DNA of 64,000 nucleotides from Allomuricauda sp. (GCA_002699205.1 PABT01000040.1:139774-203773), one strand, 5' to 3'. Counted from the first letter of the stretch, positions 4,633 to 24,273 are shown. Program-made: numbers and translations. The notes: generated from the sequence alone by a model not told the origin.

Positions 4633-4901
4633 TTGTCCCTTTGAGGACGCTATAAATCAGCAAACCGACCAAACCATTGTTCCTGACTGGAGAGCGGCCA
4701 TTGCCAAACGAAACATAAGTAGGAATTTGATGTTTTTTCGGGCAGAGGGTATCCGCCTAATCAAGTAGCATTGGGATTTTATCAATGTAAAAGTAAAATA
4801 TGACATAGGGCTTAAAAACAAATGCCGACTCTTTGTTGCAAGTCCTGAATAGTGACCGGAATATTTTGAAATTATGGATACAGCTCGCCGACAGTTTTCC
4901 C

Positions 4902-4971
4902 CCATTGGTCTATACCAAACTTTCTTTCGACCATCGATTGGATTTTAAAAGTGATTGAATATGTTATTTTG
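4902..4971 (+). promoter_or_regulatory. Putative LytTR direct-repeat site and -7 element for the signalling operon
   Basis: CCATTGGTCTATAC at 4902; second half-site core TTCGAC at 4926 (+21); TTATTTTG at 4964 (+38), the same spacing as at 11.2 and 12.9 kb. Confidence 0.55.
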
Positions 4972-4992
4972 TTTATCCATAAATTCTGAAAT

Positions 4993-5394
4993 ATGTACAT
5001 TTTATTTATAGAGGACGATGCCATAGAGACCATGAAGTTTCAACGAACTCTTGGCAAATTGGAATCCAAACATACCCTTATTGAAGCAAAAAATGGGGAG
5101 GAAGCGTTGGAGTACCTGGAATCTGGCAAACCATTGCCCGACATTATTTTATTGGATCTCAATATGCCCAGAATGAACGGGATTGAGTTTTTGGGGATTT
5201 TAAAGCAGCACGACAAAATAAAATACCTGCCCACCGTTGTACTCACAACATCCGAGAACAGGGACGATTTGCTGGAATGTTATAAGATCGGTATTGCAGG
5301 ATATGTCATTAAACCCCTTAAATATGAGGATTACGAGGCAAAACTTAAAATTGTCTTGGAATATTGGAGCCTCAATGAACTGGTGAAGGCTTAG
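4993..5394 (+). CDS. Single-domain response regulator (Rcp1-like receiver)
   Basis: EDD, LLDLNMP phospho-Asp, LTTS, YVIKP; no output domain. Confidence 0.93.
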   Translation: MYILFIEDDAIETMKFQRTLGKLESKHTLIEAKNGEEALEYLESGKPLPDIILLDLNMPRMNGIEFLGILKQHDKIKYLPTVVLTTSENRDDLLECYKIGIAGYVIKPLKYEDYEAKLKIVLEYWSLNELVKA

Positions 5395-5446
5395 TTATAA
5401 AAACGGCGTTTCACAACAAAACTTACTTGCTGGGTAAATGTTTTCC

Positions 5447-5454
5447 TACTTTTG
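5447..5454 (+). promoter_or_regulatory. Bacteroidota -7 element upstream of the H-NOX gene
   Basis: TACTTTTG matches TAnnTTTG, 17 nt before the ATG at 5472; -33 element not convincing. Confidence 0.4.
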
Positions 5455-5471
5455 AAACTTATAAGCAGATT

Positions 5472-6017
5472 ATGAAAGGAATAGTATTTACCGAGTTTTT
5501 GGAGATGGTCGAAGACCAATTTGGATTGGAGACCGTTGATGCCATTATTGAAGCCTCCGATTTACCGTCAGAGGGCATATATACCTCTGTAGGAACGTAT
5601 GAGTTCAATGAAATGGTGGCATTGCTTCAAAGTTTAAGTCAAAAGACCAATATTTCCATAGATGATCTATTGTACGCTTTTGGTCATTATCTTTTTGTGA
5701 GTTTGGGAAAAGCACATCCCGAAGTGATCAAAAGTTATAATTCACCCATCGGTTTGCTATACTCCATAGAAGACCATATCCATGTTCACGTGCAGAAGCT
5801 TTATCCGGAAGCGGAACTGCCAACCTTTAACATCTTGGATAAAACAGATACATCAATTTCCATGGTGTACATCTCCTCAAGAGGACTTTATCGTTTGGCT
5901 CACGGACTTATTGAAAAATGTTTTGAACATTTCAATACCTCTTCCAAGGTTTCCTTTGAATTACTGAAAGAGGATGGAACCGAAGTCAAATTTGATGTTG
6001 TACAGAATGGGGAATGA
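5472..6017 (+). CDS. hnoX: H-NOX / heme-NO-binding protein
   Basis: MKGIVF N-terminus, YTSVGTY, proximal His in IHVHVQKLYP, P in ELPTF, heme-binding YxSxR (YISSR), GLIE. Confidence 0.93.
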   Translation: MKGIVFTEFLEMVEDQFGLETVDAIIEASDLPSEGIYTSVGTYEFNEMVALLQSLSQKTNISIDDLLYAFGHYLFVSLGKAHPEVIKSYNSPIGLLYSIEDHIHVHVQKLYPEAELPTFNILDKTDTSISMVYISSRGLYRLAHGLIEKCFEHFNTSSKVSFELLKEDGTEVKFDVVQNGE

Positions 6018-8040
6018 TGAAGTTGCTGTCTTAAAAAGAGCGTTGGAACGCCAAAAAAAGGCCAGGGCCCAAGCCGAAAAAATATTGGAGGAAAAATCCA
6101 AGGAACTATATGATACGGCACAGCATTTGAAAAGTGCAAATGCAAGGCTCGAAAACTTATTGGACGAGAAGTCGGATGAAGTCGATGCGGCTTTTATAAA
6201 TATTATAGATCCATACGTAGTGATGGATTTGGAGTTCAATGTAATTCGCTGTAACGAGTCGGCAAAGGAGTTTTTACAGTTTGACTACAGGAATACGTTG
6301 GTCAACCTATCTGGTTTCGTGCACCCCGAATTTGCGCAGTACACCACCGAGTCATTGCAAACACTTTTGGATACCGGAATGTTAAAAAATTACCGTGCCA
6401 AAATCATTCTTCCCGATGGCAGTGAAAAATTTGTGCAGATCAATGCAAGTCTTATCTACGATCGAAAACGATCTCCCATTGCCGCTCAAGGTATTATCAG
6501 GGACATTACCCAAGAAAAGAATATTGAAAACCTGCTCGGAAAGCAACGTGGCAAATTAAAAGAGTCCGAAAATAGATTGGCCACCTTGATAAAGAACATG
6601 GAAATGGCCGTACTGCTCGAAGATGAAAACAGAAACATAGCGCTTACCAACAAGAAGTTCTGTGAAATGTACGGGTTGCCCGCCAAGCCAGAAGATATGG
6701 TTGGAATGGATTGTGGGTGTTCGGCGGAGAAAACCCAGGACTATTATAAAAACCCTGACCGTTTTGTGGAACGTATAGAAGAAATTCTGGAAAACCGCGA
6801 ACCCGTGCTGTCCGATGAATTGGAAATGGTGGATGGCAGAATTTTGGAACGTGATTACATACCTGTCATCAGTGATGGGATCTACAAAGGCCATTTGTGG
6901 AGTTATCGGGATGTTACGCTCAACAGGACCTTTAAACGAAACCTTCAAGCAGAGAAAGATAAATACAGTGGAATTATTGCAAACATGAACCTTGGGCTGA
7001 TAGAGGTGAGCCTCGATGGTCACATTCAGACCGTCAATCAAAGTTTTTGTACTATGAGTGGGTTTGAAATGGGAGAACTTTTGGGCCATACCGTTCAAGG
7101 TTTGAGAACTACCAACAATGTTCCGGTAGTGGCCAGTAAAGACCTTCTACAATTAAAAGAGGGACAAGATTCCCATGAAATGGTGGTCTTTGACAAAATG
7201 GGCGAAAATCGGCATTGGCTGGTAAGTTCGGCGCCTCGTTTTGATGAAGCCCAACGGATGATCGGTTCGATAGGAATCCATTTGGATATAACGGAACATA
7301 AAAAGTTACAGCTCGAAAAGGAAAAATTGTTGGTCAAACTGGAACAAAGTAATGAAGGCCTTAAGGAATATGCCTATGTAGTGTCACACGACCTGAAGTC
7401 TCCGTTGCGGAGCATTGAGGCGTTGGCCAGTTGGTTGAGGAACGACTACAGCGATAAATTGGATGATGCGGGCAAAGAGTATATCGGCATGATCCAGGAC
7501 AAGATAGAATCCATGGAGAACCTTATCAGCGGGATACTGGAATACTCCACGGCAAATACCTCCGAATTGAACAATACCGAAATGAATTTACATGAGGTGG
7601 TTTCCGAAATAGTGGATAGTATTTATATACCGGAAAATGTAAAAGTAATAGTCCCGAAAAGATTGCCACAAATAATTGCGGACAGGACAAAGGTGCGACA
7701 ATTGTTCCAAAACATTATTTCCAATGCGGTGGTCCATATAGAAAAAGAGAATGGTAAGGTAGAGGTCCTTTATCAAGAGGAACCCGATTATTGGGAGTTT
7801 TGTATAAAGGACAATGGAGTGGGCATCCCAAAAAAATATCACAAGAAAATTTTTGAAATTTTCCAATCAGCTTCAAACGTTAAAAAATCAACAGGAATTG
7901 GACTTTCCATAGTAAAAAAGATCATAGACCGATACAATGGTAGGGTATGGGTGGAAAGTGAAGAAGGAAAAGGAACCGATTTTTACTTTACTATTGAAAA
8001 ACCAACCTTGAAAACCAATATCAATGAAAGAAACCCCTAA
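6007..8040 (+). CDS. Cytoplasmic 3xPAS sensor histidine kinase (HnoK-like)
   Basis: N-terminal coil LERQKKARAQAEKILEEKSKELY typical of H-NOX-partner kinases; three PAS/PAC units; H-box SHDLKSPL; DNGVGIP and STGIGLSI boxes; no TM helix; overlaps the H-NOX stop. Confidence 0.92.
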   Translation: MGNDEVAVLKRALERQKKARAQAEKILEEKSKELYDTAQHLKSANARLENLLDEKSDEVDAAFINIIDPYVVMDLEFNVIRCNESAKEFLQFDYRNTLVNLSGFVHPEFAQYTTESLQTLLDTGMLKNYRAKIILPDGSEKFVQINASLIYDRKRSPIAAQGIIRDITQEKNIENLLGKQRGKLKESENRLATLIKNMEMAVLLEDENRNIALTNKKFCEMYGLPAKPEDMVGMDCGCSAEKTQDYYKNPDRFVERIEEILENREPVLSDELEMVDGRILERDYIPVISDGIYKGHLWSYRDVTLNRTFKRNLQAEKDKYSGIIANMNLGLIEVSLDGHIQTVNQSFCTMSGFEMGELLGHTVQGLRTTNNVPVVASKDLLQLKEGQDSHEMVVFDKMGENRHWLVSSAPRFDEAQRMIGSIGIHLDITEHKKLQLEKEKLLVKLEQSNEGLKEYAYVVSHDLKSPLRSIEALASWLRNDYSDKLDDAGKEYIGMIQDKIESMENLISGILEYSTANTSELNNTEMNLHEVVSEIVDSIYIPENVKVIVPKRLPQIIADRTKVRQLFQNIISNAVVHIEKENGKVEVLYQEEPDYWEFCIKDNGVGIPKKYHKKIFEIFQSASNVKKSTGIGLSIVKKIIDRYNGRVWVESEEGKGTDFYFTIEKPTLKTNINERNP

Positions 8041-8344
8041 TCTTGAATACGTGGACAAGCTTGCCGAAGGCGATGAAGCCTTTCGTCAAAAGTTTATTGC
8101 TATATTAAAAGAGGAACTTCCTAAGGAGAAAATTGAATATCATGATACCATAAAAAGTTCCTTGTTACAAGAAGCATCTGAGCATGTACACAAGATTAAG
8201 CACAAACTAAACGTTCTAGGTATGCATAATGCCTACACCATGGCAGTACAGCACGAAAATGAACTGCGAAACGGAGAACAATCGTTTAAAGAAGAATTTT
8301 TGTCGATACTCAACGATGTAGAGCATTACCTAAAAACCATTTGA
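8024..8344 (+). CDS. Hpt (histidine phosphotransfer) protein
   Basis: LEYVDKLAEGDEAFRQKFIAI...EHVHKIKHKLNVLG; helical Hpt pattern with conserved His. Confidence 0.8.
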   Translation: MKETPNLEYVDKLAEGDEAFRQKFIAILKEELPKEKIEYHDTIKSSLLQEASEHVHKIKHKLNVLGMHNAYTMAVQHENELRNGEQSFKEEFLSILNDVEHYLKTI

Positions 8345-8346
8345 TA

Positions 8347-9057
8347 ATGAATTGTATAATAGTTGATGACGAGGCCGCTGCAAGAGCAATTGTATCACAA
8401 TTATGCTCAAAAGTACCTGAGATAAACATCATGGATGAGTTTGATAGCGCAATCGATGCCATCAAATTTCTAAATCAATATAAAGTAGATGTTATTTTCT
8501 TGGACATCCATATGCCCGGATTTACTGGAATTGATTTTATCCAGACCCTTAAGAATCCTCCCAAAATAGTAATGACCACCTCAGATACCGATTTTGCCAT
8601 TGCATCATACGAATATGAGGCCATTGTAGATTATTTGGTAAAGCCAATTACGCATGAGCGATTTCAGAAATGTGTTCAAAAGGTGAAGAACAGCTCGGTT
8701 GCCAAACCACAAGCAGATGCTTCGGAAGAACAGGAAAATGCCTCGGGAGAAGACCTCTATATAAATATAGACCGTAGACTCATTAAACTTAAATACGCAG
8801 AAATACTGCTTATTGAGGCCAAAGGGGATTACATCAACATAAAAACGGAAACCAAAGATTATTTGGTGCATACCACATTAAAGAAAATCTTGGAAAAACT
8901 ACCAGAAGATAGGTTTTTGCAGATTCACCGATCGTTCGTGATCAATTTCAATAAAATAATCGATATTGAGGATAACAGTGTCCTGATCGAGAAAAGTGTG
9001 GTTCCCATTAGTAGATCCAACCGCCCGGAGTTAATGAGACGATTGAATCTTCTCTGA
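8347..9057 (+). CDS. LytTR-family DNA-binding response regulator
   Basis: VDDE, FLDIHMP, YLVKP; LytTR domain IEAKGDYI...FLQIHRSFVIN...PISRS. Confidence 0.95.
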   Translation: MNCIIVDDEAAARAIVSQLCSKVPEINIMDEFDSAIDAIKFLNQYKVDVIFLDIHMPGFTGIDFIQTLKNPPKIVMTTSDTDFAIASYEYEAIVDYLVKPITHERFQKCVQKVKNSSVAKPQADASEEQENASGEDLYINIDRRLIKLKYAEILLIEAKGDYINIKTETKDYLVHTTLKKILEKLPEDRFLQIHRSFVINFNKIIDIEDNSVLIEKSVVPISRSNRPELMRRLNLL

Positions 9058-9081
9058 TTCCCTCCTTTTTTGCTAATTACC

Positions 9082-11136
9082 TTACTTATTTGTAGAAAAT
9101 AACGGCTGCTTTTTAAGCAACCATTTGATTTGTATCCCCATCTCCGTAAATTGAAATCCAGCTGCCGTAGCAGAGGCAATATTACTGTACTTTCCATATA
9201 AGCCACCCATCAACCGTTTGGAGAACTGATGTTTTATATTCGCTTCTGCCCTAAATATAGAAGTTATGGCATCATCTTCAACTTGTTGTAGTCCTGTTGC
9301 CGCATTGATGCTATAAGTGGATTTGTTACCGAATTTTCCAGCTAGTTCCGCAAAAAACTCACCAACTTGGTACTTTTCTGGGCTAAAATAGATGGTGGGC
9401 ACTTGCTCCGCAAAGGCCAAAAATTGGTAATTAAGCCCAAATTTCAATGTTGGTTTTCTTAAAGCAGTAAAGTACAATGAAGTAAACAACAGTTCACGCT
9501 GATTTTCATCACTCTGTTCCGTATGCATCAATTGTGTGTACCAACCTAATCCAAAGTTGGAGCCTATGTTGTAGTTCAAACCATAATGGTTCATCACGAT
9601 TTCTCGTTCAATCAAATCGGTATTAAAATTTTGCACCTCCCGCTGATAACCCACTTCCAAATTTTGCAAACGGTATGGCTCAGTAACCAATTTGGCATGC
9701 AAAATGGGTTGCGTATAACCATTACCATCAAATTGAGCGTTGTTCAATCCAGCCACTCCAACTACTTTAAGCTTGGGTAACATGGCATAAGTGATTCCTG
9801 CCGTTGCCGTATGTGTATGTGCCTTGGCTGTGGTTTCAGAATTTTCGGTAAGGCGGTACTGATAATTAAAAGTGGACTGTAGTTTGGTTGAAAATGGCAG
9901 GTTTACTGTAGTATTGGAAGCATAGGCCAAATTATTTCCATTATCAAAACTATAAGATACTTGCTCCTGAATCGTTGGACTATAAATGCCATTCATTTTT
10001 TCGAGCAGACCTTTGGCATCTTTTTGATTTTCAAAAATATCCAAGGTTTTATAGGTGGCTACATAAGCCTCATCAATTTTTCCACGGGCAAAAAGAGCGT
10101 TGGCCTTGCCCAAATTCCCATCAAACGAAATACTGTCCGTCTCCAGAATTGTATCATAATGCTTTAAACTGCTTTTAATGTTGCCCGTATACATACCCAG
10201 GGTTGCTTTTAGAGCGGACATCCAGTTACCATCCCCATAGGAGTTGGATAAGCTATCGATATAATTTCTGGCCTGTACAAATTTTCTGTTCCAGATTAAG
10301 GCTTGGGCATAGCGCTCGTAAGTTCTTTCTCTTAGTTTAATATCATCAACAGTATTGACCTTGCTTTTTGCAGTTAATGCAACCTTAAGAGCTTCTTTGT
10401 CATCTTCCCCAATATGTTCGGCAAGGGCTATACCGTTCAATGCCACAATGGAATCCTTTTTGTTTACGGCCAATGTTCTATACGTTGCTTTGGCACTGTC
10501 CACCTCTTTAGTGATCAAATAAATATTGGCAAGATTGAGCAGGGTTTCCTTATCATTTGGGAAATCACTGAAAATAGATGTCAATTTACTTTTGGCGTTA
10601 TCATAATTCTGGTTTTTCATTAAGGTATTGGCCAATCCCAAATTCATATACTTTTTAGAGGTAAGAGCACTTGGGTTTCCGGGTTCAATAGCCAATGCTT
10701 TATCAATCCAAACCAAAGCCGCATCATATTTTTGAAGATTACTGAGTGTGTTCGCATATCCTAGAACTGCGCCAAATTTGTTTGGATAATCTTCTACAAG
10801 TCCTGCGTACATCTTTTCAGCCTCCGTATAGCGTTTTCCCCATAAAAATGATTCATAATAATTGATACGTACCTCATAATCATCGGGGTTCTCTTCCATC
10901 ATACCATTAAATAAGGTATTGGCTTTGTTCGGGTTACCGTTTAGTCCCACAGCACGACCGTAGCATATCTGGGCCGTTTTATTATTGGGGTTGTCTTTAA
11001 GGAAATCACCAAAGAAGTTTTCTGCTTTAGAAAAGTCTCCATTTTCCAAAAGTTGGAAACCAGCATCCATAGAGGACTGTGCAAAAATGCCATAAGAGGC
11101 GAGTATTAAAATGACGGTGTTGACAAAGCGTTTCAT
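9082..11136 (-). CDS. Secreted TPR-repeat protein with C-terminal outer-membrane beta-barrel
   Basis: Signal peptide; about 380 aa of TPR-like helices (e.g. YDAALVWIDKALAIEPGN); about 290 aa of alternating amphipathic strands (FNYQYR, LGWYTQ, FGLNYQF, MGIQIKW). Confidence 0.75.
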   Translation of the reverse strand: MKRFVNTVILILASYGIFAQSSMDAGFQLLENGDFSKAENFFGDFLKDNPNNKTAQICYGRAVGLNGNPNKANTLFNGMMEENPDDYEVRINYYESFLWGKRYTEAEKMYAGLVEDYPNKFGAVLGYANTLSNLQKYDAALVWIDKALAIEPGNPSALTSKKYMNLGLANTLMKNQNYDNAKSKLTSIFSDFPNDKETLLNLANIYLITKEVDSAKATYRTLAVNKKDSIVALNGIALAEHIGEDDKEALKVALTAKSKVNTVDDIKLRERTYERYAQALIWNRKFVQARNYIDSLSNSYGDGNWMSALKATLGMYTGNIKSSLKHYDTILETDSISFDGNLGKANALFARGKIDEAYVATYKTLDIFENQKDAKGLLEKMNGIYSPTIQEQVSYSFDNGNNLAYASNTTVNLPFSTKLQSTFNYQYRLTENSETTAKAHTHTATAGITYAMLPKLKVVGVAGLNNAQFDGNGYTQPILHAKLVTEPYRLQNLEVGYQREVQNFNTDLIEREIVMNHYGLNYNIGSNFGLGWYTQLMHTEQSDENQRELLFTSLYFTALRKPTLKFGLNYQFLAFAEQVPTIYFSPEKYQVGEFFAELAGKFGNKSTYSINAATGLQQVEDDAITSIFRAEANIKHQFSKRLMGGLYGKYSNIASATAAGFQFTEMGIQIKWLLKKQPLFSTNK

Positions 11137-11209
11137 AGGTTAAGCTTTAAGGTTTTTTTGATGATGTAAAGTTAAAACGGGTGTAGCCACAGCGGAAGGG
11201 CGAACTATT

Positions 11210-11279
11210 CCATTCATCTACAGCAATATGCAATCCATCTACACCGACCATTTTAAGACGTCAAACAAGTGGATATTTG
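11210..11279 (+). promoter_or_regulatory. Putative LytTR direct-repeat site and -7 element (STAS-flippase operon)
   Basis: CCATTCATCTACAG (11210) and CAATCCATCTACAC (11231), period 21; GATATTTG at 11272. Confidence 0.75.
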
Positions 11280-11321
11280 TCCTAACAAGTCGAATAATAT
11301 TAACCTTATAATCTAAAAATC

Positions 11322-11600
11322 ATGGCTTTACAAATCACAGAATCTAGAAGGGTTTTTTCTGTAAATGGTAACTTGAACAGTGCCAATATCAAAATATTTG
11401 AAAGACACATGAGGAATTTTATTAAGCGTGGTGCCATCGTTGTATTGGATTTGCAAAAGGTGACCCAAATAGATGATTTGGCCGGTAAGGCATTGATTCA
11501 AATGTTTGCGAACGCCCTTATTTTGGATTGTCAATTCACTATTAAAGGAGGAGTTCCAAAAAACCTTATGCATGAACTATGCTTGGAAGCTAAGCTTTAA
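11322..11600 (+). CDS. STAS-domain protein (anti-anti-sigma-like)
   Basis: 92 aa; VNGNLNSAN...VVLDLQKVTQIDDLAG STAS pattern. Confidence 0.75.
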   Translation: MALQITESRRVFSVNGNLNSANIKIFERHMRNFIKRGAIVVLDLQKVTQIDDLAGKALIQMFANALILDCQFTIKGGVPKNLMHELCLEAKL

Positions 11601-11611
11601 TCCACTACGTT

Positions 11612-12841
11612 ATGACAGCATTAAACCTTGTAATAAAACGAGTTTCTCCCCAACAACTTTTTATGTTGAGTGCCTTATTGGTAAATGGAGGTAATTATAT
11701 ATATAACTTAATTCTTGGCCGTATTCTTGGCCCAGAAGCTTTTGCAGATGCAGCGCTACTTGTGACCCTATTATTGATTCTTTCCTTTTTGGGGATGACG
11801 TTCCAGTTGGTGACCGCAAAATTTATTGCCGCATTGCCAACACAACAATGGGAGCCATTTAGAAATAAAATTGGTGTTTTTGCGCTTTTAGTAGGATCCT
11901 TGTTGGGAGCTGTGGTGTTTTTTGCCGCACCTTTTCTTCAAAATATGTTGCATACTGAAAATGTTCTCATGTTCCGAATTTTTGGAATTGGGGTGCCATT
12001 TTACTTCGTGATGAGTGTAAATAGGGGGCAGTACCAAGGAGAAGAAGCCTTTGGAAAATTATCCATGTCATACCAATTGGAGATGTGGGGACGATTGGTG
12101 ATTACGTTTTTGGCTTTTGTGTTGATTCGTGACCACTTTGGAGCCTTGGTGTCCCTTGGAATTGTAGCCTCGTTGGCATTGGGATTGTTTCCTTTCAAAA
12201 AGTTGCGTTTTAATGTAGTCAAGACCGAGTCCACAGGTTTGGAATGGAACAAAGTTCGAACTTTTATGTTGATCACTGCCTGTTACGAACTTACCCAAAT
12301 CATTATCAACAATAGTGATATCATATTAGTGAAGCACTTTTTTAATGCTCAGGAAGCTGGTCTTTATGCTTCGTTGGCTTTGATAGGGCGTGTGGTCTAC
12401 TTTGTAGCATGGATGTTTGTGATGTTGCTGTTGCCAACAGTGGTGCGTCTAAAGAGAGAAGGTAAACCAACCAAACATGTACTTTTTAAGTATGTGGGAT
12501 ATATCGGGTTGTTGTCCGCAATTATAGTTGGTGCCTGTGTACTTTTCCCCAAATTGATCATCACCATGCTTTTTGGAGAGGCCTATATTTCCATGTCATC
12601 ATTGTTATGGCAATACGCTTTGGCAACCTCGATGTTTTCCATAGCCAACATTTTTACATATTACTTTTTATCCCTAGATCATTATAGGCCAATATGGTTT
12701 TCGGCCATTGCAGGGATATTACAAATTACTTTAATCGTTTTTCTCCATGGTAGTTTGGCCATTATTGTCCAAACACAGATTTTGGTTATGGCATCATTGC
12801 TCATATTTCAATTTCTTTATTTTTTCTCTAGGGAGAAGTGA
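11612..12841 (+). CDS. Oligosaccharide/polysaccharide flippase (Wzx/MOP superfamily)
   Basis: About 12 TM helices; NYIYNLILGRILGPEAF; NNSDIILVKHFFNAQEAGLYA. Confidence 0.88.
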   Translation: MTALNLVIKRVSPQQLFMLSALLVNGGNYIYNLILGRILGPEAFADAALLVTLLLILSFLGMTFQLVTAKFIAALPTQQWEPFRNKIGVFALLVGSLLGAVVFFAAPFLQNMLHTENVLMFRIFGIGVPFYFVMSVNRGQYQGEEAFGKLSMSYQLEMWGRLVITFLAFVLIRDHFGALVSLGIVASLALGLFPFKKLRFNVVKTESTGLEWNKVRTFMLITACYELTQIIINNSDIILVKHFFNAQEAGLYASLALIGRVVYFVAWMFVMLLLPTVVRLKREGKPTKHVLFKYVGYIGLLSAIIVGACVLFPKLIITMLFGEAYISMSSLLWQYALATSMFSIANIFTYYFLSLDHYRPIWFSAIAGILQITLIVFLHGSLAIIVQTQILVMASLLIFQFLYFFSREK

Positions 12842-12868
12842 TACATTTTTGGGTTTTTTAGATAGGTG

Positions 12869-12905
12869 AAAAGGCTGGGTACACCCATGGTACCTGGCTT
12901 TTTTT
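12869..12905 (+). terminator. Intrinsic terminator after flippase
   Basis: AAAAGGCTGGGTAC-ACCCATG-GTACCTGGCTTTTTTT. Confidence 0.7.
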
Positions 12906-12936
12906 GTTCCAATTTTATCTTGTCCCCAGAGGTTTT

Positions 12937-13006
12937 CCATTCATCTACACTTTAAGTCTGTCCATCCCGTAATGCATTTTTTTGCAAGGGTTTATGTGGA
13001 TATTTG
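12937..13006 (+). promoter_or_regulatory. Putative LytTR direct-repeat site and -7 element (GT4)
   Basis: CCATTCATCTACAC (12937), TCCATC at 12961 (+21), GATATTTG at 12999 (+38). Confidence 0.75.
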
Positions 13007-13034
13007 TATCAACAAAACAAGTAAACTTAACCTT

Positions 13035-14270
13035 ATGAAACTAGCAATTGTCACGGCCTACCCACCAAGTAAAGTTACCCTTACCGAGTATGGATACCAT
13101 CTTGTAAAACATTTTAGGCTTCAAGATAAAGTAAGCGAAATTGTTCTACTTGCCGATAAAACAGAAGCCCCCAAAGATTTGTCTTTTGAGGAAGAAGGTT
13201 GCCCCATCACCGTAAAGGAATGTTGGAACTTCAACGATATTAAAAATCTTTACAAAGTAGCAAAGGCCATTAAGCAAGAAAAACCGGATGCGGTATTGTT
13301 CAACCTTCAATTTTTGAAGTTTGGGGATAAAAAGATACCTGCCGCTCTTGGATTATTGTTGCCCTTTGTTTGTAGAATAATGGGTATCCCAACCATTTCT
13401 TTGTTGCACAATATTTTGGAACAAGTGGATTTGGAAAATGCTGGAATCACTCAAAATGGATTCCTTCAAAAAATATATAATTTTATTGGAACCACTTTGA
13501 CCCGTTTTGTTCTAGCTTCCGATGTGTTAGCGGTCACCATCAGCAAGTATAAAACCATTTTGGAGAAAAAATACAAGGTAAAGAATGTAGCATTGGTACC
13601 CCACGGGGCTTTTGAAACTCCACCAGCACCAAACTATGCTTTACCAGAAGGTCCAATGCAGATTATGGCATTTGGTAAGTTCGGAACCTACAAAAAAGTG
13701 GAGCCTTTAATAGAGGCAGTGGAACTGTTGCGTAAAAAGACCGACCTGGATTTAGAAATTGTTATTGCCGGGACCGATAGCCCTAACACTCCAGGGTACT
13801 TGGAAAACGTAAAAAACACCTACAGCCAAGTTAAAAACATGAGATTTACTGGATATGTGGCCGAGGAAGATGTACCAAAAATATTTGGTGACAGTGCAGT
13901 AGTTGTTTTCCCATACACTTCGACAACAGGTAGCTCGGGCGTATTGCACCAAGCTGGAAGTTATGGAAAAGCAGTAGTTCTGCCGGATTTGGGCGATCTT
14001 GGAATCTTGGTTAGGGAAGAAGGTTATAGAGGCGAGTTCTTTGAAACCGAAAATGCTGAATCTTTAGCATCGGCCCTTGAAAATATTTTGACCAATGAGG
14101 CTTACCGTATCCAATTGGGACAACAAAATTATGAAGCAGCTTGTTCATTGCCAATGTCCAAGATTACGGAAATGTACTTGGATCTATTTAAAGCTATTCA
14201 GCTTAAAAAAGGATTGTTGCCATTTAACGAGCAAGAAGTGAAAAAAATTAAAGAGACTACTAACGTTTAG
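13035..14270 (+). CDS. GT4 (GT-B fold) glycosyltransferase
   Basis: AFGKFGTYKKVE, FTGYVAEEDV, VVVFPY...SSGVLHQAGSYGKAVV. Start at 13035 because the promoter lies inside the longer ORF. Confidence 0.9.
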   Translation: MKLAIVTAYPPSKVTLTEYGYHLVKHFRLQDKVSEIVLLADKTEAPKDLSFEEEGCPITVKECWNFNDIKNLYKVAKAIKQEKPDAVLFNLQFLKFGDKKIPAALGLLLPFVCRIMGIPTISLLHNILEQVDLENAGITQNGFLQKIYNFIGTTLTRFVLASDVLAVTISKYKTILEKKYKVKNVALVPHGAFETPPAPNYALPEGPMQIMAFGKFGTYKKVEPLIEAVELLRKKTDLDLEIVIAGTDSPNTPGYLENVKNTYSQVKNMRFTGYVAEEDVPKIFGDSAVVVFPYTSTTGSSGVLHQAGSYGKAVVLPDLGDLGILVREEGYRGEFFETENAESLASALENILTNEAYRIQLGQQNYEAACSLPMSKITEMYLDLFKAIQLKKGLLPFNEQEVKKIKETTNV

Positions 14271-14288
14271 GTTTTTAGGTTGAGTGTG

Positions 14289-14322
14289 AAAAGGGGGGTG
14301 ACTATTTTAGTTGTCCCCTTTT
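14289..14322. terminator. Bidirectional terminator between convergent GT4 and GH genes
   Basis: AAAAGGGGGGTGACTATTTTAGTTGTCCCCTTTT. Confidence 0.6.
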
Positions 14323-15839
14323 CTTTTTGTAGTAACCTCCCCGTATGCAGGTTTTCGGTTGCCATCGGAATCTATAAGGCCATAATGCTTTTGAGGAGCC
14401 CTTCGCCAAGGTTTTCGACCTACGACTTGCGTTGGTACAGTTCCAAAATCATGCAAGGTCCACATAAAATAAGGGAGCTGCTCTTTGGACAATACTTTCT
14501 GCATTTTATTATAATAGGCCGCTTGAGAATTTTCTGAATTGGTGAACAAATTCCATACACAGCTGTAGCTGGACTTTCCATATTCCCCTAAAACCAAAGG
14601 TTTATGCCCTACAGCATCCTTCAATACCAAAAAACGATCCATTAAATGTTCAGGAGCCTCATAATAGTGGAAAGAAACAAAATCCACGGTTTTTACCAAG
14701 TTAACAGCAGCTTCAGGCGTAGCCCAACCAATGGTTACGGGATGTAAACCATCAATCTTTTTAATCTGTGCTGCCATTTCGGACAACCAGTTCAATACAT
14801 TGTTCTTGCCCCGAGATTCAAAATCCAAATCTGGTTCGTTTTTAATATCCCAACCTAGTAGAGCTTTATGAGTTTTTAAATGGGAAACAATAGTTTCGGC
14901 ATGTCTATGGGTCAGTGTCCAGTCTAAAATGTCATAATTACCATAAAAATCAAAAAGGGTGACCAAAACTTTGAGCTCATGTTCCGCTGCTATATCCAAT
15001 AATTTCGATAATTGTTGGAGGTATTCATCCTTAACGTTAGCTTTCCCAAAAGTTTCGTACGGTACAAAAACACGAACCGTATTTAATCCCATGTTATGTA
15101 TCGTTTCAAAATCATCAGAGATCGGAGAAGCATCAAAATGGTTCCCGAACATATCCCATGGATGGTCTTTTGGGTAATAGTTGATTCCTTTCCAACTTTT
15201 GGCGTTGAATGTAATCTCTTCGGCTTGCTTTTCATGGATAGTGGTGGTGGGCAGTTTTACCATTTGACGGATTCTCCAAAACCCATCTTCCAACAATAGA
15301 ATCACTTTATAGGAACTTATTGTTTTTTGTTGGTGCAACAGTTCTCCGGAAGCATATATTTTTTCAAACTGAGATACATTTTTATCCGTGAGCACGGCAA
15401 GTTTGCCATCCAAACTGTAAAATTCAAGCTTAGGCTCGTGCGATAGGGTAGTGGTCTCTATTGTAATAGCGTTGTCTTGGTTGTTTTTGATCAAGGCATG
15501 TATTTGGGACCGGGCATCCTGGGTGTAATAATCCTCAACGCCCAAATGATTGTAAGAGTTAAGGGCAATGCTCTTAACATACCAAGCGTTCACATAGTCT
15601 TTCTCTAGTTCGCCAAGTGCCTGATCGGAAATTTTTCTACCCCGTTGTTCTTTTAAATCCCAAGTAATCTTGGGTTGGTACGCTTTTTCAATGGCTCCGC
15701 CAATATGAAGAATGGTAGATTTATCGGCACCAGTGTTCAAAAAACTCCAAGCAGCAGCCAATCCATAAATAATCCCGGCATTTATGGCCAAAAAGCTCAA
15801 AAGGAGCAAAGCACGGTATGTGTTTTTCTTTACCATCAT
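14307..15839 (-). CDS. Membrane-anchored clan GH-A (GH5-like) glycoside hydrolase
   Basis: N-terminal TM helix; KGINYYP, GLNTVRVF, WDIKNEP (acid/base), SFHYY, VLGEYG (nucleophile), WTLHD. Confidence 0.85.
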   Translation of the reverse strand: MMVKKNTYRALLLLSFLAINAGIIYGLAAAWSFLNTGADKSTILHIGGAIEKAYQPKITWDLKEQRGRKISDQALGELEKDYVNAWYVKSIALNSYNHLGVEDYYTQDARSQIHALIKNNQDNAITIETTTLSHEPKLEFYSLDGKLAVLTDKNVSQFEKIYASGELLHQQKTISSYKVILLLEDGFWRIRQMVKLPTTTIHEKQAEEITFNAKSWKGINYYPKDHPWDMFGNHFDASPISDDFETIHNMGLNTVRVFVPYETFGKANVKDEYLQQLSKLLDIAAEHELKVLVTLFDFYGNYDILDWTLTHRHAETIVSHLKTHKALLGWDIKNEPDLDFESRGKNNVLNWLSEMAAQIKKIDGLHPVTIGWATPEAAVNLVKTVDFVSFHYYEAPEHLMDRFLVLKDAVGHKPLVLGEYGKSSYSCVWNLFTNSENSQAAYYNKMQKVLSKEQLPYFMWTLHDFGTVPTQVVGRKPWRRAPQKHYGLIDSDGNRKPAYGEVTTKRKGDN

Positions 15840-17056
15840 TTTGGAGTGCCCTGGATTGTTTTAGTGATACCGGCTACCGTTGTTGTTAAGATAATCTCAT
15901 CTACGTTGATGCTGTTGGGTACAATAAAGGTCCCCATACCTTTTCTAGAGCTGGTGTTGAAGGTTCGTATGGTTTGTCCTTCGAATGTTTTGATATCCAA
16001 CCTCATATTCATGCCATCTGGTACCCACTGGTTCATGTAGCTTAGAATGGGGCCAACAGTAATTGTTTTGCCATCCTTGGCCATATGGATAGCGTAATCC
16101 AAGACTGCAGCTTCAAAATCCAGTTCCAAAAGATTGCTTATGGATGTGCCGCTGATGTTCGCATTTACCTTCCAATGGCTCGGTACCTCTGGATGCAACA
16201 TTTTCCCCTCGGCCATACCATTTAGGGTTTGTCCATAGGTTTGATATTGGTTTCCAGAGTTGTCTTTGATTATAAAATTGACCAAAGTGCCGTCCGCAAC
16301 CATATTCCCGTGCACATCGTTTATGGTAGACGTTTTAAAGGAAACAATCTGGTTGCCATCCGCAAAACGGTGCTGTCTGTCCATTTGTATGATAAAATCA
16401 TCCGCTCTTGTGGGTAGCACATTCACGGTAAATTCTTTGGAAACTTGTTTTTCTAAGGTGGTGGTGATAAAAATGTCACCAACTTTTTTTCTAGCTCCAA
16501 CGTAATCGTGGGCAATCAAGTCTAGTAGTTCAATTGGACTGCTTTGTTGTTCTTCCTTGAATTTTTCGGTCAGATTTAGTTTTGTGCCTTCTGGTAATGG
16601 GTTCCCAAATTCATCTTGTGGTAATGTAACCACCATAGATCGGTCCTTGTTGTCCGCAAAAATGCTGGTAGGCCCAATGTACGTTTCCATCTCTTTTGAT
16701 GAATTGTGGCTTGGAAGTATGTTGAGGTCCCCCTCAGACATTATGGAGCTATTAGATATCAATTTCCAATGGGCCTCCCCACTTTTTTGAGCAACGGATG
16801 TGGGCAGAGTAAAAGACAATTGTATTTCGGTAGTATCCGGTTGAAGGCCAAATGTCCCCCACGCATTTTGAATCAAGAGTATTTGATTGCTGGGTTTTCC
16901 ATCAAACCGTAGGTTTATGGCTTCGCCAGCAACAAACTCCTTTTGTTTGGTCAATAGATCAATAGGCTTTGGTACTGAAGCGGTCTCTGTATCCACTGAA
17001 TTGGAACAACCAGCAAGTGCCAAACAAAAAATCCATATGTAATAATATAGTTTCAT
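15836..17056 (-). CDS. Lipoprotein with repeated Ig-like (Big_1/invasin-like) domains
   Basis: Lipobox LAGC; three related motifs DEFGNPLPEGT, DVHGNMVADGT, YMNQWVPDGM; ATGA overlap with the GH gene. Confidence 0.7.
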   Translation of the reverse strand: MKLYYYIWIFCLALAGCSNSVDTETASVPKPIDLLTKQKEFVAGEAINLRFDGKPSNQILLIQNAWGTFGLQPDTTEIQLSFTLPTSVAQKSGEAHWKLISNSSIMSEGDLNILPSHNSSKEMETYIGPTSIFADNKDRSMVVTLPQDEFGNPLPEGTKLNLTEKFKEEQQSSPIELLDLIAHDYVGARKKVGDIFITTTLEKQVSKEFTVNVLPTRADDFIIQMDRQHRFADGNQIVSFKTSTINDVHGNMVADGTLVNFIIKDNSGNQYQTYGQTLNGMAEGKMLHPEVPSHWKVNANISGTSISNLLELDFEAAVLDYAIHMAKDGKTITVGPILSYMNQWVPDGMNMRLDIKTFEGQTIRTFNTSSRKGMGTFIVPNSINVDEIILTTTVAGITKTIQGTPK

Positions 17057-20000
17057 TTATTTGGGGTTGCCTATATAATTGTTCAATTCAATTTGAAAAT
17101 ACGTATAGCCTTTGCCTGTATAAGGTTTCATCATTTCCCATTTTAAATCCTCGTTTCTTTCACCAAAATAGCTGTTTGAAATATCAGAGTTCGGCATGCC
17201 GTTCACATAACAATTGTCCAGTCCATCAGCTATAATCTCCAAGTTGGTCAAATCCCTCATGGTAATTTCGAAAGACTGTTTTCGCTGAATTCGAATACCA
17301 TCCAGCGTAAAATGATGCTCCACCCATAAAAGTTCACCTTCTTCTGTGTAATATGAAGTCAAAACCTGTGGAATGGTTACTTCTTGGGCGCCATAGTTGA
17401 AAAGCGTTCCCTTTAAAAAATCTTGCTCCAGTGTCCATTCTTGCAGGGCGACCGATTTATATAAATCTGTAGTGGCCACATTTCCGGCACATTGTAGATC
17501 AAAGGTAACAGGTTGTTCATCGAGACTGATAGGGGTAAACTGGTCTGGATTAAAAGTTGGCGGCAAAGTATCTTTGGTGGATGACCATGCAATTCCTTCA
17601 AAATCTACTCGAAACGTAGTGGTTTCCTTGGGCATTAATTTATGCTTTGCATGAAATTTAGCATCGTATTGTGCCAATTGTGTATTGTTCTTATTGTACA
17701 GGGTGCCTTTTATGGAGACATCTGCAGGTACATTATCAATATTCTGAAGTTTTCCAATAATACTGTAGCTTCCTTGATACTTTACCAATTTGGCGGATAA
17801 AACCTCTAAAAGTGGTTGCCGCAGAATATCCTCATGATAGGTTTGCTGGGTGGTTATACGCCTACGTCCATGGTTGTAATACTGGGTTTTGTTGGAGGTT
17901 ATCAACTGGTTGGGCGGAATATCGGCATCCACTTTTTTGGGTTTGATATACCATCTGCCTTTCTTTTTGACCAACGTGTGTTGATACGATCTGTCCACTT
18001 TTTCCAGTGGGGTAATCCATTTGGTGTCCACTTGCATCTCCACAGAACTCTCGGATTTTTTTTGGACAGTGATTCCCATGGAATCCAATTTGGCATAAGA
18101 ACTCAATAATCCATCTGTTACCGAAACTTCCAACATATATTGGGAGAGGTCTACGTTTTCATCGGGGTCAAGATAGGAGTGTGCTCTTTCAAATTCTTTA
18201 AAATCCAAGGCGTCATAATAGGCTTTTACCACATTTTCGGCACTTATTTGGCTGGCATTGTCCAGATAGAAATGATAAATTCCGAAAATAAAAATCCCAA
18301 TTACCGCTATGGCCCAAGCTCCATTGATCAAGGAAAGCCCTTTGGAGATTCCGTTAAACTTTGGGGCATGTAAAAAATAGTCATCCGTTTTTTGGGAATG
18401 TCCTTTTAATTTTTTGTACCACGGTACTTGAATATTGATAATGAATGCCAAAATCAAAGTTCCCACGGGAATCAATCCCCACATCAATTTTAAAAAATTA
18501 GGGACATCGTCTTTGGGAATTACTTTGGGCAACGGAGAAATATTGAGCCGCTCCCATACCATAATGCCATTTTCCAGTTGCTGTAGCCGTTGCCATCCGC
18601 AGAAATAGAGGATAGGGTCGTAAAACTTATCGTTGGAAAAAATATATTTTAAATTGTATTTCTCGGGAACGGTTAAAAACTGTTGTAGGGACCCAATTCC
18701 TTCAACCCCTCTAAATTTTGAATTTTCCAATCGTTCAATGGCTCTAGTGGTCAGTTCGGGAAGCCTCCTTGCCGAGTGGTAATTGCCATCAACGGTCATG
18801 GCATTGGTTTGTGCGGAAAGCCATGCCATTTGATCTCCAAAACCAAGCGGTAGATATCGCCATTTATCGTGCTGATCCTGGTTCAAAAAATTAACGATCG
18901 GCAGCATATTGATTTTCTGGGGTTGCGATGGCCTAAAATAATTTAAGCTCATGGTAAATATGGCGACCACAATAAAAGAAATTCCCAGACCACCGGCCAA
19001 TACGTAGTGCAATGGTTTTTTAAAAGCTTTTAGCAATTGTTCACGTATATCGCCCTCTACCAAACGATAAACAAATTCCCCGAAAATGGGTAATGACATT
19101 ATGGTGGCCCAAAGTGTGAACCGGTCCAAAGTGAGGATGTTAAAGGCAGTATCTCCAAGTAACATTTTTGGCAGGGGAGTGGTGCCTCCCGTTCCCAATA
19201 AGGTCAACATGGAAAACGAGAGTCCAAAAAATAATAGCCTTTTACTATAAAAACGATAGAAAAAATATGGTAAAATGAACAACAGTATTCCCCAAGGTAT
19301 CAAGAAAAAGACCAGACCGGAGGAGGTGACTTCCAGAAAATTGTCCCTAGAGCCATGTGGAATAGGAACCTGTGTAATCGGGTTTTTCTTGGAGTTGATC
19401 CAATAGGGCAGAATACAGAACACAATGGCAACCAAAGATCCTCCGCCAAAAATGACAATGCGCCAGAACAATCTTTTGAATTGCTGAAAGAATACTTTAA
19501 AGGTAATCCGGGTGTTTATTTGTACCGCTTCTTTGGCGGCGTCCATGATCACCAGTCCGATAAGTGGAAAGATAAAGAAGATCATCCCAAAAATAGGGGT
19601 AACGTGGTGGGAGGCCACGGTGACCGCAATCATGGAAAGCGAAGAAAGTAATTTAAACTTTCTCCCTGTTTTTATCCAACTGTAAATTTCTGGTAGTGCA
19701 TGCAGAAGAATGGAAATCCCCATTAAACTGGGCAGTTGGCCAAATATGTGCAAAGTCTCCAAGAACATGGATGAAAAAGCAGCGAGTAGCGCTGTATATC
19801 CAGCAATTTTAGTATTTGCCGTAATGACCAACGCAAAACGATATGCCCCGGTTATGAACAATGCTATAATAAGGAGTGCCATGGTGAACATCCCGAACTT
19901 TAATCCACCGATGTACGAAAGCAGGGCAATGCATTGATGCACCAGTGGGGGATAGCCCTGTACCGTAAATCCAGTGTACCAGCGGTAATCCCATGGTTCG

Positions 20001-20152
20001 AACCAACTGTTGGCATAGTGGTCGGCAAAGAAAAGGTGTATGAGCGCATCATAGGTGGATTCCAAAGTAAAAAAGATGGTTGCCCCATGAAAAATAAGCC
20101 CAAAAACCAGCGCAATTGCCAGTGTTATGTTGGTTTGTTTTTGCATTAACAT
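17057..20152 (-). CDS. GT-C-fold membrane glycosyltransferase (YfhO/PTPS-related type) with large periplasmic C-terminus
   Basis: TYDALIHLFFADHY...WDYRWYTG...GYPPL loop after TM1; about 13 TM helices; C-terminal NTF2-like segment (AENVVKAYYDAL) and FxLYD/Ig-like segments (GKLQNIDNVPADVSIKGTLYN). Confidence 0.72.
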   Translation of the reverse strand: MLMQKQTNITLAIALVFGLIFHGATIFFTLESTYDALIHLFFADHYANSWFEPWDYRWYTGFTVQGYPPLVHQCIALLSYIGGLKFGMFTMALLIIALFITGAYRFALVITANTKIAGYTALLAAFSSMFLETLHIFGQLPSLMGISILLHALPEIYSWIKTGRKFKLLSSLSMIAVTVASHHVTPIFGMIFFIFPLIGLVIMDAAKEAVQINTRITFKVFFQQFKRLFWRIVIFGGGSLVAIVFCILPYWINSKKNPITQVPIPHGSRDNFLEVTSSGLVFFLIPWGILLFILPYFFYRFYSKRLLFFGLSFSMLTLLGTGGTTPLPKMLLGDTAFNILTLDRFTLWATIMSLPIFGEFVYRLVEGDIREQLLKAFKKPLHYVLAGGLGISFIVVAIFTMSLNYFRPSQPQKINMLPIVNFLNQDQHDKWRYLPLGFGDQMAWLSAQTNAMTVDGNYHSARRLPELTTRAIERLENSKFRGVEGIGSLQQFLTVPEKYNLKYIFSNDKFYDPILYFCGWQRLQQLENGIMVWERLNISPLPKVIPKDDVPNFLKLMWGLIPVGTLILAFIINIQVPWYKKLKGHSQKTDDYFLHAPKFNGISKGLSLINGAWAIAVIGIFIFGIYHFYLDNASQISAENVVKAYYDALDFKEFERAHSYLDPDENVDLSQYMLEVSVTDGLLSSYAKLDSMGITVQKKSESSVEMQVDTKWITPLEKVDRSYQHTLVKKKGRWYIKPKKVDADIPPNQLITSNKTQYYNHGRRRITTQQTYHEDILRQPLLEVLSAKLVKYQGSYSIIGKLQNIDNVPADVSIKGTLYNKNNTQLAQYDAKFHAKHKLMPKETTTFRVDFEGIAWSSTKDTLPPTFNPDQFTPISLDEQPVTFDLQCAGNVATTDLYKSVALQEWTLEQDFLKGTLFNYGAQEVTIPQVLTSYYTEEGELLWVEHHFTLDGIRIQRKQSFEITMRDLTNLEIIADGLDNCYVNGMPNSDISNSYFGERNEDLKWEMMKPYTGKGYTYFQIELNNYIGNPK

Positions 20153-20206
20153 CTGTCAGAAAATATAACAGAATAAAGGTCTGAATATTGTTATAAAACC
20201 AATGAA

Positions 20207-20273
20207 CTATTCATCGCTTCGGTTTAACCATTCGTCTACACTTAATTGATTTCCAACTTTTTTGAGCTATTTG
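20207..20273 (+). promoter_or_regulatory. Putative LytTR direct-repeat site (receiver-GT2 gene)
   Basis: TTCATC at 20210 and CCATTCGTCTACAC at 20228 (core 20231, +21); GCTATTTG at 20266 (+35); an exact TAGATTTG also at 20290. Confidence 0.68.
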
Positions 20274-20332
20274 GGACAGCAATGTGGGGTAGATTTGCTT
20301 CAAATATTGTTCAAAAACGTAAACCTTAACCT

Positions 20333-21466
20333 ATGAAAATTTTAGCAATTGATGATCAGCAGTTGATACTGCTTTCTGTACAAAGAAAACTTAAAGAGAT
20401 TGGCTATTTGGTAAAAACGGCCGCCACAGGACAACAAGGCATCGAGATTTATAAAGAATTTACGCCAGATTTGGTAATCATGGACATGAACATGCCTGAG
20501 ATGAATGGATTGGAGGTGATTAGCCAACTTAGAGATATTGACTTGAACACACCTATTATGGTGATGTCAGGTAACAACGATGAAAATGTGATTCTTAATG
20601 GATTTGAATTGGGCATTGTTGATTATATGAAAAAACCCATTGGCCTAGATGAAATGGTGGCCAGGGTGAAACGAACCATTGGACCTCCAATTTTGGAGAA
20701 ACAATCAGTTAAAAAAGAAACCCAAATCATACAAAAGAACTGCGTTGGCGTTGTAATTCCGTGTTATAATGAAGAAGACCGATTGAGTGGCAAGGAGTTT
20801 CAGGATTTTGCGAGGCGTCATCCAGGGTACCACCTATGTTTTGTAAATGACGGCAGTACGGACAATACATTGCAGGTACTTGAAGAAATCAGAAAAGGAA
20901 ACGAAGATAGCATCAGCGTGTACAATTGTGAGCAAAATGGAGGCAAGGCAGAAGCCGTACGACAAGGAATCCTTCACTTGGCAAAAGATGGACAGTTCGA
21001 TTATATGGGGTATTTGGATGCGGACCTTTCTACCGATTTTACTGATTTTGATGAATTGGTACGAACCATTGAAGGTTCAAAGTTTGATATTGTCAGTGGT
21101 TCAAGAATTAGCAGAATGGGTGCTGATATTACTAAGGAATCAGCAAGAAAAATTATTAGTAAAACCATTAACTGGATCATTCAGAAAATTCTTGGAATGC
21201 CTTTCAAGGACACTCAATGTGGTGCCAAAGTAATGCGACCAAGTACTGTGGCATCCGTTTTCGAAACGCCTTTTAAAACGAGATGGTTGTTTGATGTGGA
21301 AATTTTTATCAGAATGCGAAAGATGTATGGGAAAGAAAAAGCGACCGCTTTAATTTGTGAGCAGCCTCTAAAAAGATGGATTCACGCCGATGGTTCAAAA
21401 TTATCCATGAAAGATTCCATAAAAATTATTTGGCAATTGGGACAGTTGTCGATTATGTATAGGTAG
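20333..21466 (+). CDS. Receiver domain fused to GT2 polyprenyl-phosphate glycosyltransferase (DPG/DPM-synthase-like)
   Basis: REC: IDD, IMDMNMP, VMSG, MKKP. GT2: VVIPCYNEE, VNDGSTD, NGGKAEAVRQG, YLDADLS, DTQCGAK, WLFDVE. Confidence 0.9.
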   Translation: MKILAIDDQQLILLSVQRKLKEIGYLVKTAATGQQGIEIYKEFTPDLVIMDMNMPEMNGLEVISQLRDIDLNTPIMVMSGNNDENVILNGFELGIVDYMKKPIGLDEMVARVKRTIGPPILEKQSVKKETQIIQKNCVGVVIPCYNEEDRLSGKEFQDFARRHPGYHLCFVNDGSTDNTLQVLEEIRKGNEDSISVYNCEQNGGKAEAVRQGILHLAKDGQFDYMGYLDADLSTDFTDFDELVRTIEGSKFDIVSGSRISRMGADITKESARKIISKTINWIIQKILGMPFKDTQCGAKVMRPSTVASVFETPFKTRWLFDVEIFIRMRKMYGKEKATALICEQPLKRWIHADGSKLSMKDSIKIIWQLGQLSIMYR

Positions 21467-24270: not shown

Positions 24271-24273
24271 AGC

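Follow-up and report, generated by a model that had tools for sequence, protein, structure and literature searches.

LytTR activators such as AgrA (at agr P2/P3), ComE, PlnC/PlnD and HdrR/BrsR act from direct repeats of about 9 bp with a 12-bp gap (PMC6193735, PMC4005675). In published operators of this kind, two direct repeats are separated by 12 bp (range 11-13), usually stand about 10 bp upstream of the -35 element (within some 4-11 bp) and are commonly autoregulatory (PMC6193735), and a tandem LytTR arrangement has been described in ComE (PMC4005675). Another LytTR response regulator, AlgR of Pseudomonas aeruginosa, counts exopolysaccharide biosynthesis genes among its targets and recognises a box, CCGTTCGTC, that was defined by footprints and chromatin immunoprecipitation sequencing (PMC4064291, PMC4787818). 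On the sensory side, the H-NOX pathways of Shewanella (HnoK/HnoB/C/D) and Vibrio (H-NOX/HqsK-LuxU-LuxO) place H-NOX beside a histidine kinase and run through an Hpt step to a biofilm-related output (PMC6769237, PMC8738867). Here we analyse a stretch of 64,000 nt from Allomuricauda sp. (GCA_002699205.1 PABT01000040.1:139774-203773), hereafter the window, with coordinates counted from its first letter. Four promoters of a gene cluster in this window, P1 to P4, carry tandem repeats that are very probably the operator of a regulator with a receiver (REC) and a LytTR domain, encoded in the same cluster at 8347-9057.

The host genome (4.47 Mb, 41% GC) belongs to the Flavobacteriaceae, and its closest relatives are Muricauda/Flagellimonas. 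We found no description of this operator or circuit in the searchable open literature. Judged by its sequence, it appears to be a well-defined operator of the known LytTR kind, attached to an undescribed circuit that leads from signalling to polysaccharide genes. Gene regulation is poorly mapped in marine Flavobacteriaceae, where very few operators have been defined, and the analysis gives a precise candidate operator, a candidate regulator and a compact four-promoter regulon. It also connects a predicted relay from a haem sensor, probably for nitric oxide, with a surface-polysaccharide pathway that is so far uncharacterised; Maribacter, Cellulophaga, Zobellia, Muricauda/Flagellimonas and further genera associated with algae and particles have this pathway in conserved form.

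Tandem repeats at four promoters

A preliminary description of the window had reported five CCATTCRTCTACAC-type 14-mers, and all five recur at its coordinates, on the + strand: at 4902, at 11210 and 11231, at 12937 and at 20228. When up to two mismatches are allowed, these five matches compare with 0.71 expected in the window, and none of 100 shuffles reached five; at up to three mismatches the window count is about twice the expectation. Across the whole 4.47-Mb genome the degenerate 14-mer has two exact matches, both in the cluster, where about 0.07 would be expected from a base-composition estimate, and three of the four matches with at most one mismatch fall in the cluster as well. The motif is real and far beyond chance.

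Each strong site is followed 21 bp downstream by a weaker copy (TCTTTCGAC, CAATCCATC, CTGTCCATC and ATTTCCAAC for P1 to P4), and three of the four promoters (P1, P3 and P4) have a third half-site upstream. In Bacteroidota, promoters read by the housekeeping sigma factor have a -7 element, TAnnTTTG, and a -33 element, TTTG, about 19 bp upstream of it. The -7 boxes of the cluster (TTATTTTG at P1, GATATTTG at P2 and P3, TAGATTTG at P4) agree with this TAnnTTTG, and an ATTTT or ATTTG stands at +40 or +41 from the start of the distal site, 17-18 bp before the -7 box. From the start of the strong 14-mer to the start of the nnnnTTTG -7 box the distance is 62 bp at all four promoters (4902 to 4964, 11210 to 11272, 12937 to 12999 and 20228 to 20290). 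A loose composite of the form TYCRWC, 15 bases, TYCRWC, 36 bases, TTTG matches three times in the window, with 0.01 matches expected.

All elements of the four promoters lie on the + strand. P1 consists of the distal site CCATTGGTCTATAC (4902..4915), the proximal half-site TCTTTCGACCATCG (4923..4936, with its core TTCGAC at 4926), a -33-like ATTTT at 4942-4946 and the -7 box at 4964..4971, preceded by a weak third half-site, CAGCTCGCCGACAG (4881..4894), that agrees with the consensus at 9/14 positions. At P2 the proximal site CAATCCATCTACAC (11231..11244) is itself a 14-mer match; it follows the distal site CCATTCATCTACAG (11210..11223) and is followed by ATTTT at 11250-11254 and the -7 box at 11272..11279, where GATATTTG is kept at +62 in orthologues. 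P3 comprises the distal site CCATTCATCTACAC (12937..12950), the proximal half-site CTGTCCATCCCGTA (12958..12971), whose core follows the distal core by 21 bp, ATTTT at 12977-12981 and the -7 box at 12999..13006; its weak upstream half-site (12916..12929) has a core TTGTC ending at 12924, and the C at -13 is conserved in this promoter class. P4 comprises the upstream half-site CTATTCATCGCTTC (20207..20220), which is conserved in orthologues, the distal site CCATTCGTCTACAC (20228..20241), the proximal half-site ATTTCCAACTTTTT (20249..20262), which is identical in the closest relatives (L001-L007), ATTTG at 20269-20273 and the -7 box at 20290..20297, where orthologues have TAGATTTG, TAAATTTG or TACATTTG at +62.

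These assignments amend the preliminary description at one promoter. Its exact 21-bp pairing of half-site cores holds at 4905/4926, 11213/11234 and 12940/12961, and its core at 20210 is real, but this core belongs to the third, upstream half-site of P4. Likewise, the spacing that it gave for the -7 box stands at three promoters, while at the fourth its box GCTATTTG at 20266, 35 bp on from the second core, gives way to TAGATTTG at 20290. The comparison with orthologues places P4 in the register of the other promoters (20228-20241, 20249-20262, 20290-20297), and the 62-bp distance therefore applies to all four.

A composite matrix built from orthologous sites ranks P2 (47.2 bits), P3 (42.4), P4 (37.5) and P1 (27.2) as the top four matches in the genome. 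The next best match in the 4.47 Mb scores 19.1 bits and lies inside an open reading frame (ORF), so the regulon in this genome appears to be confined to the cluster; a genome-wide scan for further members found none outside it. Of the 526 genome-wide matches to the 14-mer at up to three mismatches, only the four cluster sites also have a proximal core and a correctly placed TTTG, a test that is partly circular since the proximal core was defined from these four sites; the orthologue columns, 9-mer counts and autocorrelation reported below are free of this circularity. Two near-perfect 14-mers (C37:26821 and C9:42252) and the highest-scoring matrix matches outside the cluster (C21:98489 and C49:44305) were not accepted as members, since all of them lie within long ORFs and have no partner half-site and no -7 box.

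Like the operators of the AgrA/ComE type, the repeats have cores of about 9 bp with a 12-bp gap and may end about 10 bp before a putative equivalent of a -35 element, one site precedes the operon that encodes the candidate regulator, and this candidate is a REC-LytTR protein. Unlike those operators, they occur in a Bacteroidota host, whose promoters are of the -33/-7 (TAnnTTTG) type, a CTAYAS tail lengthens the repeat unit to 14 bp, and a third copy is present at most of the promoters. In sequence the core resembles the AlgR box: the core consensus CCATTCGTC is identical to this box at 8/9 positions, and CCGTTCGTC itself occurs exactly in several orthologous sites (e.g. L001 11311, L003 18628). 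The variants CCGTTCATC and CCGTTGGTC, footprinted with AlgR, resemble CCATTCATC (11210 and 12937) and CCATTGGTC (4902) here, with the same A-for-G difference. AlgR boxes are single, stand in either orientation and lie at very variable distance (-470 to +391), whereas the sites of the cluster form tandem arrays on one strand, always 62 bp from the -7 box. Because of this tandem, oriented and fixed arrangement, the system would work like the AgrA/ComE type with an AlgR-like sequence. The repeats are predicted to be an undescribed but typical LytTR activator operator with autoregulation.

Conservation of the site and its association with one regulator

The preliminary description had made its reading depend on conservation of the motif in orthologous promoters, and the motif proves to be strongly conserved there, in many genera. 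With the flippase of the cluster (11612-12841) as anchor, we fetched 80 orthologous loci that span Flagellimonas/Muricauda, Robiginitalea, Cellulophaga, Maribacter, Arenibacter, Sediminicola, Zobellia, Formosa, Olleya, Lacinutrix, Polaribacter, Aquimarina and others. Most of these loci have sites at syntenic places, upstream of the stand-alone receiver gene (REC1), STAS/flippase, the glycosyltransferase GT1 and the fusion REC-GT2, typically four per locus and at a median distance of 92-130 bp from the start codon, depending on the promoter class. The putatively autoregulatory type of site at P1 is among those conserved, with 29 sites of the REC1 class, and it is kept when the gene has been relocated (L081 9163, L082 9143).

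Among 222 orthologous sites that were chosen on the distal 14-mer alone, the half-site at +21 is kept as CCATCCAnC, with C at +29 in 191/222, and the -7 box is kept, with A at +63 and TTTG at +66 to +69 in about 85%; in the spacer columns the information content is about 0.1 bit. When the core matrix is slid along 164 orthologous sites, its autocorrelation peaks at +21 (z = 8.2) and -21 (z = 4.3) only, and the copy at -21 is confined to promoters of the REC1, GT1 and REC-GT2 classes. Prior-free counting of 9-mers in 193 upstream regions ranks CCATTCGTC and its overlapping neighbours at the top; CCATTCGTC occurs 95 times in all loci, 71 times within these regions.

Some relatives have a further motif site (29-42 bits) between the LytTR and TPR genes, before a secreted protein of about 830 aa with DUF4114 and a type IX secretion system (T9SS) C-terminal sorting domain (L002 3182-5767, with equivalents in L003-L007, L019, L022 and L055). 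No homologue of this protein was found in the Allomuricauda genome.

In most of the 80 loci the polysaccharide genes come with genes for the REC-LytTR regulator and an Hpt-like protein beside it, at 58-88% identity, and of the genes conserved with the cluster the LytTR orthologue alone has a recognised DNA-binding domain. We compared the presence of this orthologue with exact matches to the pattern CCATTCRTCTAYAS in 151 genera of the family, with statistics that ignore shared ancestry. At least one match occurs in 36/54 genomes with the orthologue and in 21/97 without it (odds ratio 7.2, p = 7e-8), and at least two matches in 20/54 and 3/97, respectively (p = 6e-8). In orthologue-bearing genomes, 44 of the 67 matches lie within 30 kb of the gene. 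The reversed pattern, as a control, has 16 matches against 92 for the true pattern.

Two genomes separate the regulator from the polysaccharide genes. In Pseudozobellia (L034) and Euzebyella (L053) both the LytTR gene and the motif are missing from the polysaccharide/H-NOX locus; the orthologue of the 8347-9057 regulator (73% identity) lies elsewhere, beside a REC paralogue, and the motif stands before this REC-LytTR pair at 46 and 42 bits. The motif also precedes neighbouring genes at the relocated loci (sites at L081 9163 and 10810, and at L082 9143, 13487 and 14824). Since the motif has moved with the LytTR gene in both genomes, it follows the regulator and not the polysaccharide genes. A site that is kept across the family and travels with one LytTR regulator gene is very likely the predicted docking site of that regulator.

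Two further observations concern the relocated loci. In Euzebyella the motif is also found before a second flippase/GT1-like pair. The site at L081 10810 (34 bits) has no ORF of at least 90 aa downstream; it could serve a small RNA or be an orphan promoter.

Other binders and other explanations

The foremost alternative, which we regard as improbable though worth weighing, accepts the operator as real and assigns it to another factor: the REC-LytTR paralogue at 24274-25011, one of 16 other LytTR proteins, or the AraC-family neighbour at 3715-4632. The genome holds 18 LytTR-domain ORFs, the paralogue is encoded only 4 kb from P4, and activators of the AraC family, too, rely on direct repeats with a spacing of about 21 bp beside the -35 element. 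The preliminary description had favoured the 8347-9057 protein over the paralogue, and the comparative data bear it out. A true orthologue of the paralogue (83% identity) occurs in one other of the 151 genera, and this paralogue is therefore best seen as part of a lineage-specific system unrelated to the motif. Its wider clade, of similar prevalence and used as a negative control, is not associated with the motif (odds ratio 1.4, p = 0.39); genes of the clade lie hundreds of kb from motif sites. None of the 80 loci contains the AraC gene, but some of them are too short on the upstream side for it to be seen. The movement of the motif with the relocated 8347-9057 orthologue and the resemblance of the core to a footprinted LytTR box also speak against another binder. 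We accordingly rejected both the paralogue and the AraC neighbour as candidates.

Several observations weigh against the 8347-9057 regulator as binder or against the site as described. With 18 LytTR-domain ORFs in the genome, association and co-localisation do not prove the binder, the phyletic tests are uncorrected for shared ancestry, and co-localisation of motif and regulator is confounded with the polysaccharide cluster in most genomes, the two being separated only in Pseudozobellia and Euzebyella. No exact match to the strict pattern is present in 18/54 genomes that have the orthologue. The site at P1 is weak in this genome, at 27 bits. The proximal core ends at +29 and the T-rich -33-like element, which is moderately conserved, starts at +40 to +42. 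In five loci (L025, L027, L028, L031 and L042) the site is kept at the REC operon only, and in one metagenome-assembled genome (L023) no site was seen. Some Maribacter and Cellulophaga lineages with a site at the REC operon only have GT1 directly after the flippase, with no promoter gap.

It is very unlikely that the conserved block is instead an RNA element in a transcribed leader, or an extension of the promoter that RNA polymerase or an alternative sigma factor reads directly. Leaders do contain a second shared element, CTTAACCT. The repeats, in contrast, lie at a fixed distance from a conserved TAnnTTTG -7 box downstream of them, with a phasing of 21 bp, or two turns of DNA, and spacers that are not conserved, and they lie upstream of the predicted start by about 50-75 bp, a distance too great for the -35 contact of a sigma factor. 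An Rfam scan of 4500-21600 returned no relevant family, and the reading as an RNA element was dropped for this reason.

Chance similarity, or a functionless remnant of repeated or mobile sequence, deserves hardly any credence: the modest excess at three mismatches would suit it, yet the counts at two mismatches, the confinement of both exact genome-wide matches to the cluster, the position kept across many genera and the divergence of spacers but not of half-sites contradict it, and conservation had already refuted it. The four-promoter LytTR regulon put forward in the preliminary description is supported, as a prediction, by the conserved motif, its association with the 8347-9057 orthologue and their joint relocation.

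A predicted circuit from sensor relay to polysaccharide genes

P1 precedes the operon 4993..9057 (+), whose first gene encodes a stand-alone REC protein (4993-5394). It is followed by H-NOX (5472-6017), a PAS histidine kinase (5974-8040, start uncertain), an Hpt-like protein of 106 aa (8024-8344) and the REC-LytTR regulator (8347-9057); REC, H-NOX and kinase were assigned by Pfam. The Hpt-like protein has a weak match to Hpt (E = 0.002, below the family cut-off), and a PDB search found no relative of it. The regulator matches LytTR (PF04397) at E = 6e-20 and Response_reg at E = 4e-18, and its receiver reads as intact, with D7/D8, D53, T77/78 and K99 present. A PDB search with this protein returned generic receiver domains and ComE (4CBV) only, and the best NCBIfam equivalogs, BtsR and LytR, are both below their cut-offs. 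P2 precedes the operon 11322..12841 (+) of a STAS protein (11322-11600) and a Polysacc_synt flippase (11612-12841), both assigned by Pfam, and is divergent from a TPR protein gene (9082-11136, -). Downstream of P3 lies the GT1/GT4-type glycosyltransferase (13035-14270, +), whose start at 13035 (MKLAIVTAYPP) is as in orthologues, and downstream of P4 the REC-GT2 fusion glycosyltransferase (20333-21466, +; Pfam). A minus-strand operon, 14307..20152, encodes a GT-C-like membrane protein of 1031 aa (17057-20152), a 406-aa protein (15836-17056) and a glycoside-hydrolase-like protein (14307-15839). In addition to the AraC-family gene at 3715-4632, a neighbouring segment of the window (22732-25011) encodes a LytS-type kinase (7TMR-DISM + His_kinase) together with the REC-LytTR paralogue.

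At each regulated promoter the operator would consist of two, in some cases three, CCATYCRYC(TAYAS) half-sites in tandem, spaced 21 bp from centre to centre. A 9-bp core and a 12-bp spacer make two helical turns, and bound proteins would thus sit on one face of the DNA. The proximal core would end about 10-12 bp upstream of the T-rich -33-like element, and the distal 14-mer would start 62 bp before TAnnTTTG. We infer that the regulator, phosphorylated on D53, would bind the tandem sites as a dimer or higher oligomer and recruit RNA polymerase, such that the four + strand promoters are probably activated and not repressed. Its predicted targets are its own REC/H-NOX/kinase/Hpt/LytTR operon, which would provide positive feedback, the STAS-flippase operon, the GT1 glycosyltransferase and the REC-GT2 glycosyltransferase. 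The signal may pass from the kinase to REC, the Hpt-like protein and LytTR, modulated by H-NOX, as the gene content suggests.

The input predicted here is a multi-step relay (H-NOX/PAS kinase, REC, Hpt-like protein) and the targets are polysaccharide genes, unlike the AgrA/ComE type with its peptide-sensing kinase. The likeness to the Shewanella and Vibrio H-NOX pathways ends at the output, which is predicted to be a LytTR factor acting on the adjacent polysaccharide locus, not cyclic di-GMP enzymes or a quorum-sensing cascade. A further difference is that the closest relatives exchange the H-NOX module for FIST and kinases with the same output. If the predicted binding is true, no H-NOX pathway found earlier would have had a LytTR transcription factor as its end point, and the circuit would offer a handle on what turns the biofilm matrix on and off in these bacteria.

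The exchange was seen in Flagellimonas sp. C4 (L004 1-3542) and likewise across L002-L007, where kinase-FIST-kinase takes the place of REC-H-NOX-kinase as input; the rest, with the Hpt-LytTR pair, the operator and the polysaccharide genes, is as in the window.

A more far-reaching scenario is possible, though we hold it to be rather doubtful. The cluster may represent a family-wide modular cassette in which an Hpt-LytTR output with an AlgR-box-like operator drives a polysaccharide pathway of the GT-C/TPR-porin type, under an exchangeable sensor (H-NOX and PAS kinase here, FIST and kinases in the closest relatives). In this genome, nitric oxide would then directly control transcription of matrix genes in a marine member of the Flavobacteriaceae, and REC-GT2 would add a post-translational arm. 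The likeness to the AlgR box would reflect a shared LytTR recognition code, ancient or transferred, for the control of exopolysaccharides across phyla.

The preliminary description had further held that every operon of the cluster borders a site. This is literally true, but the minus-strand TPR operon and the GT-C-like/406-aa/glycoside-hydrolase operon have no site in their own orientation; these two divergent operons may share the sites of their + strand neighbours. A -7-like box, TAACTTTA (11174..11167, -), precedes the TPR gene, with TTGTAAAGTTA conserved in the STAS and flippase promoter classes, and another, GACCTTTA (20181..20174, -), precedes the GT-C-like operon, with TAAAGATA conserved in the REC-GT2 class.

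The divergent intergenic regions contain other conserved blocks, in the window at 11194-11198 and 11166-11174 and at 20161-20181. In the STAS/flippase class a GGAAG lies 12-16 bp upstream of the distal site; TTGTAAAGTTA and ATATAACA..TAAAGATA read as the -7-like boxes of the minus-strand TPR and GT-C-like operons.

A leader element, CTTAACCT(T)ATGAAA, was observed at the start codons of GT1 (13027-13040), REC-GT2 (20326-20338) and TPR (11143..11131, minus strand), and STAS carries ATTAACCTTAT (11303-11313), 20 nt before its start. In the 80 loci, TTAACC occurs within 25 nt of the start in 32/71 cases for GT1, 14/24 for STAS and 11/34 for TPR, compared with 0-4 cases for seven further genes of the cluster. 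The first genes of the regulated operons may share it as an element of the leader or of translation initiation.

A sigma-70 promoter scan gave 42 matches against 46.7 expected, with a model that is uninformative for Bacteroidota promoters. The same scan marked strong bidirectional hairpin terminators at 9101-9125 and 14290-14322, at the convergent junctions LytTR/TPR and GT1/glycoside-hydrolase-like, which fit the operon boundaries assumed here.

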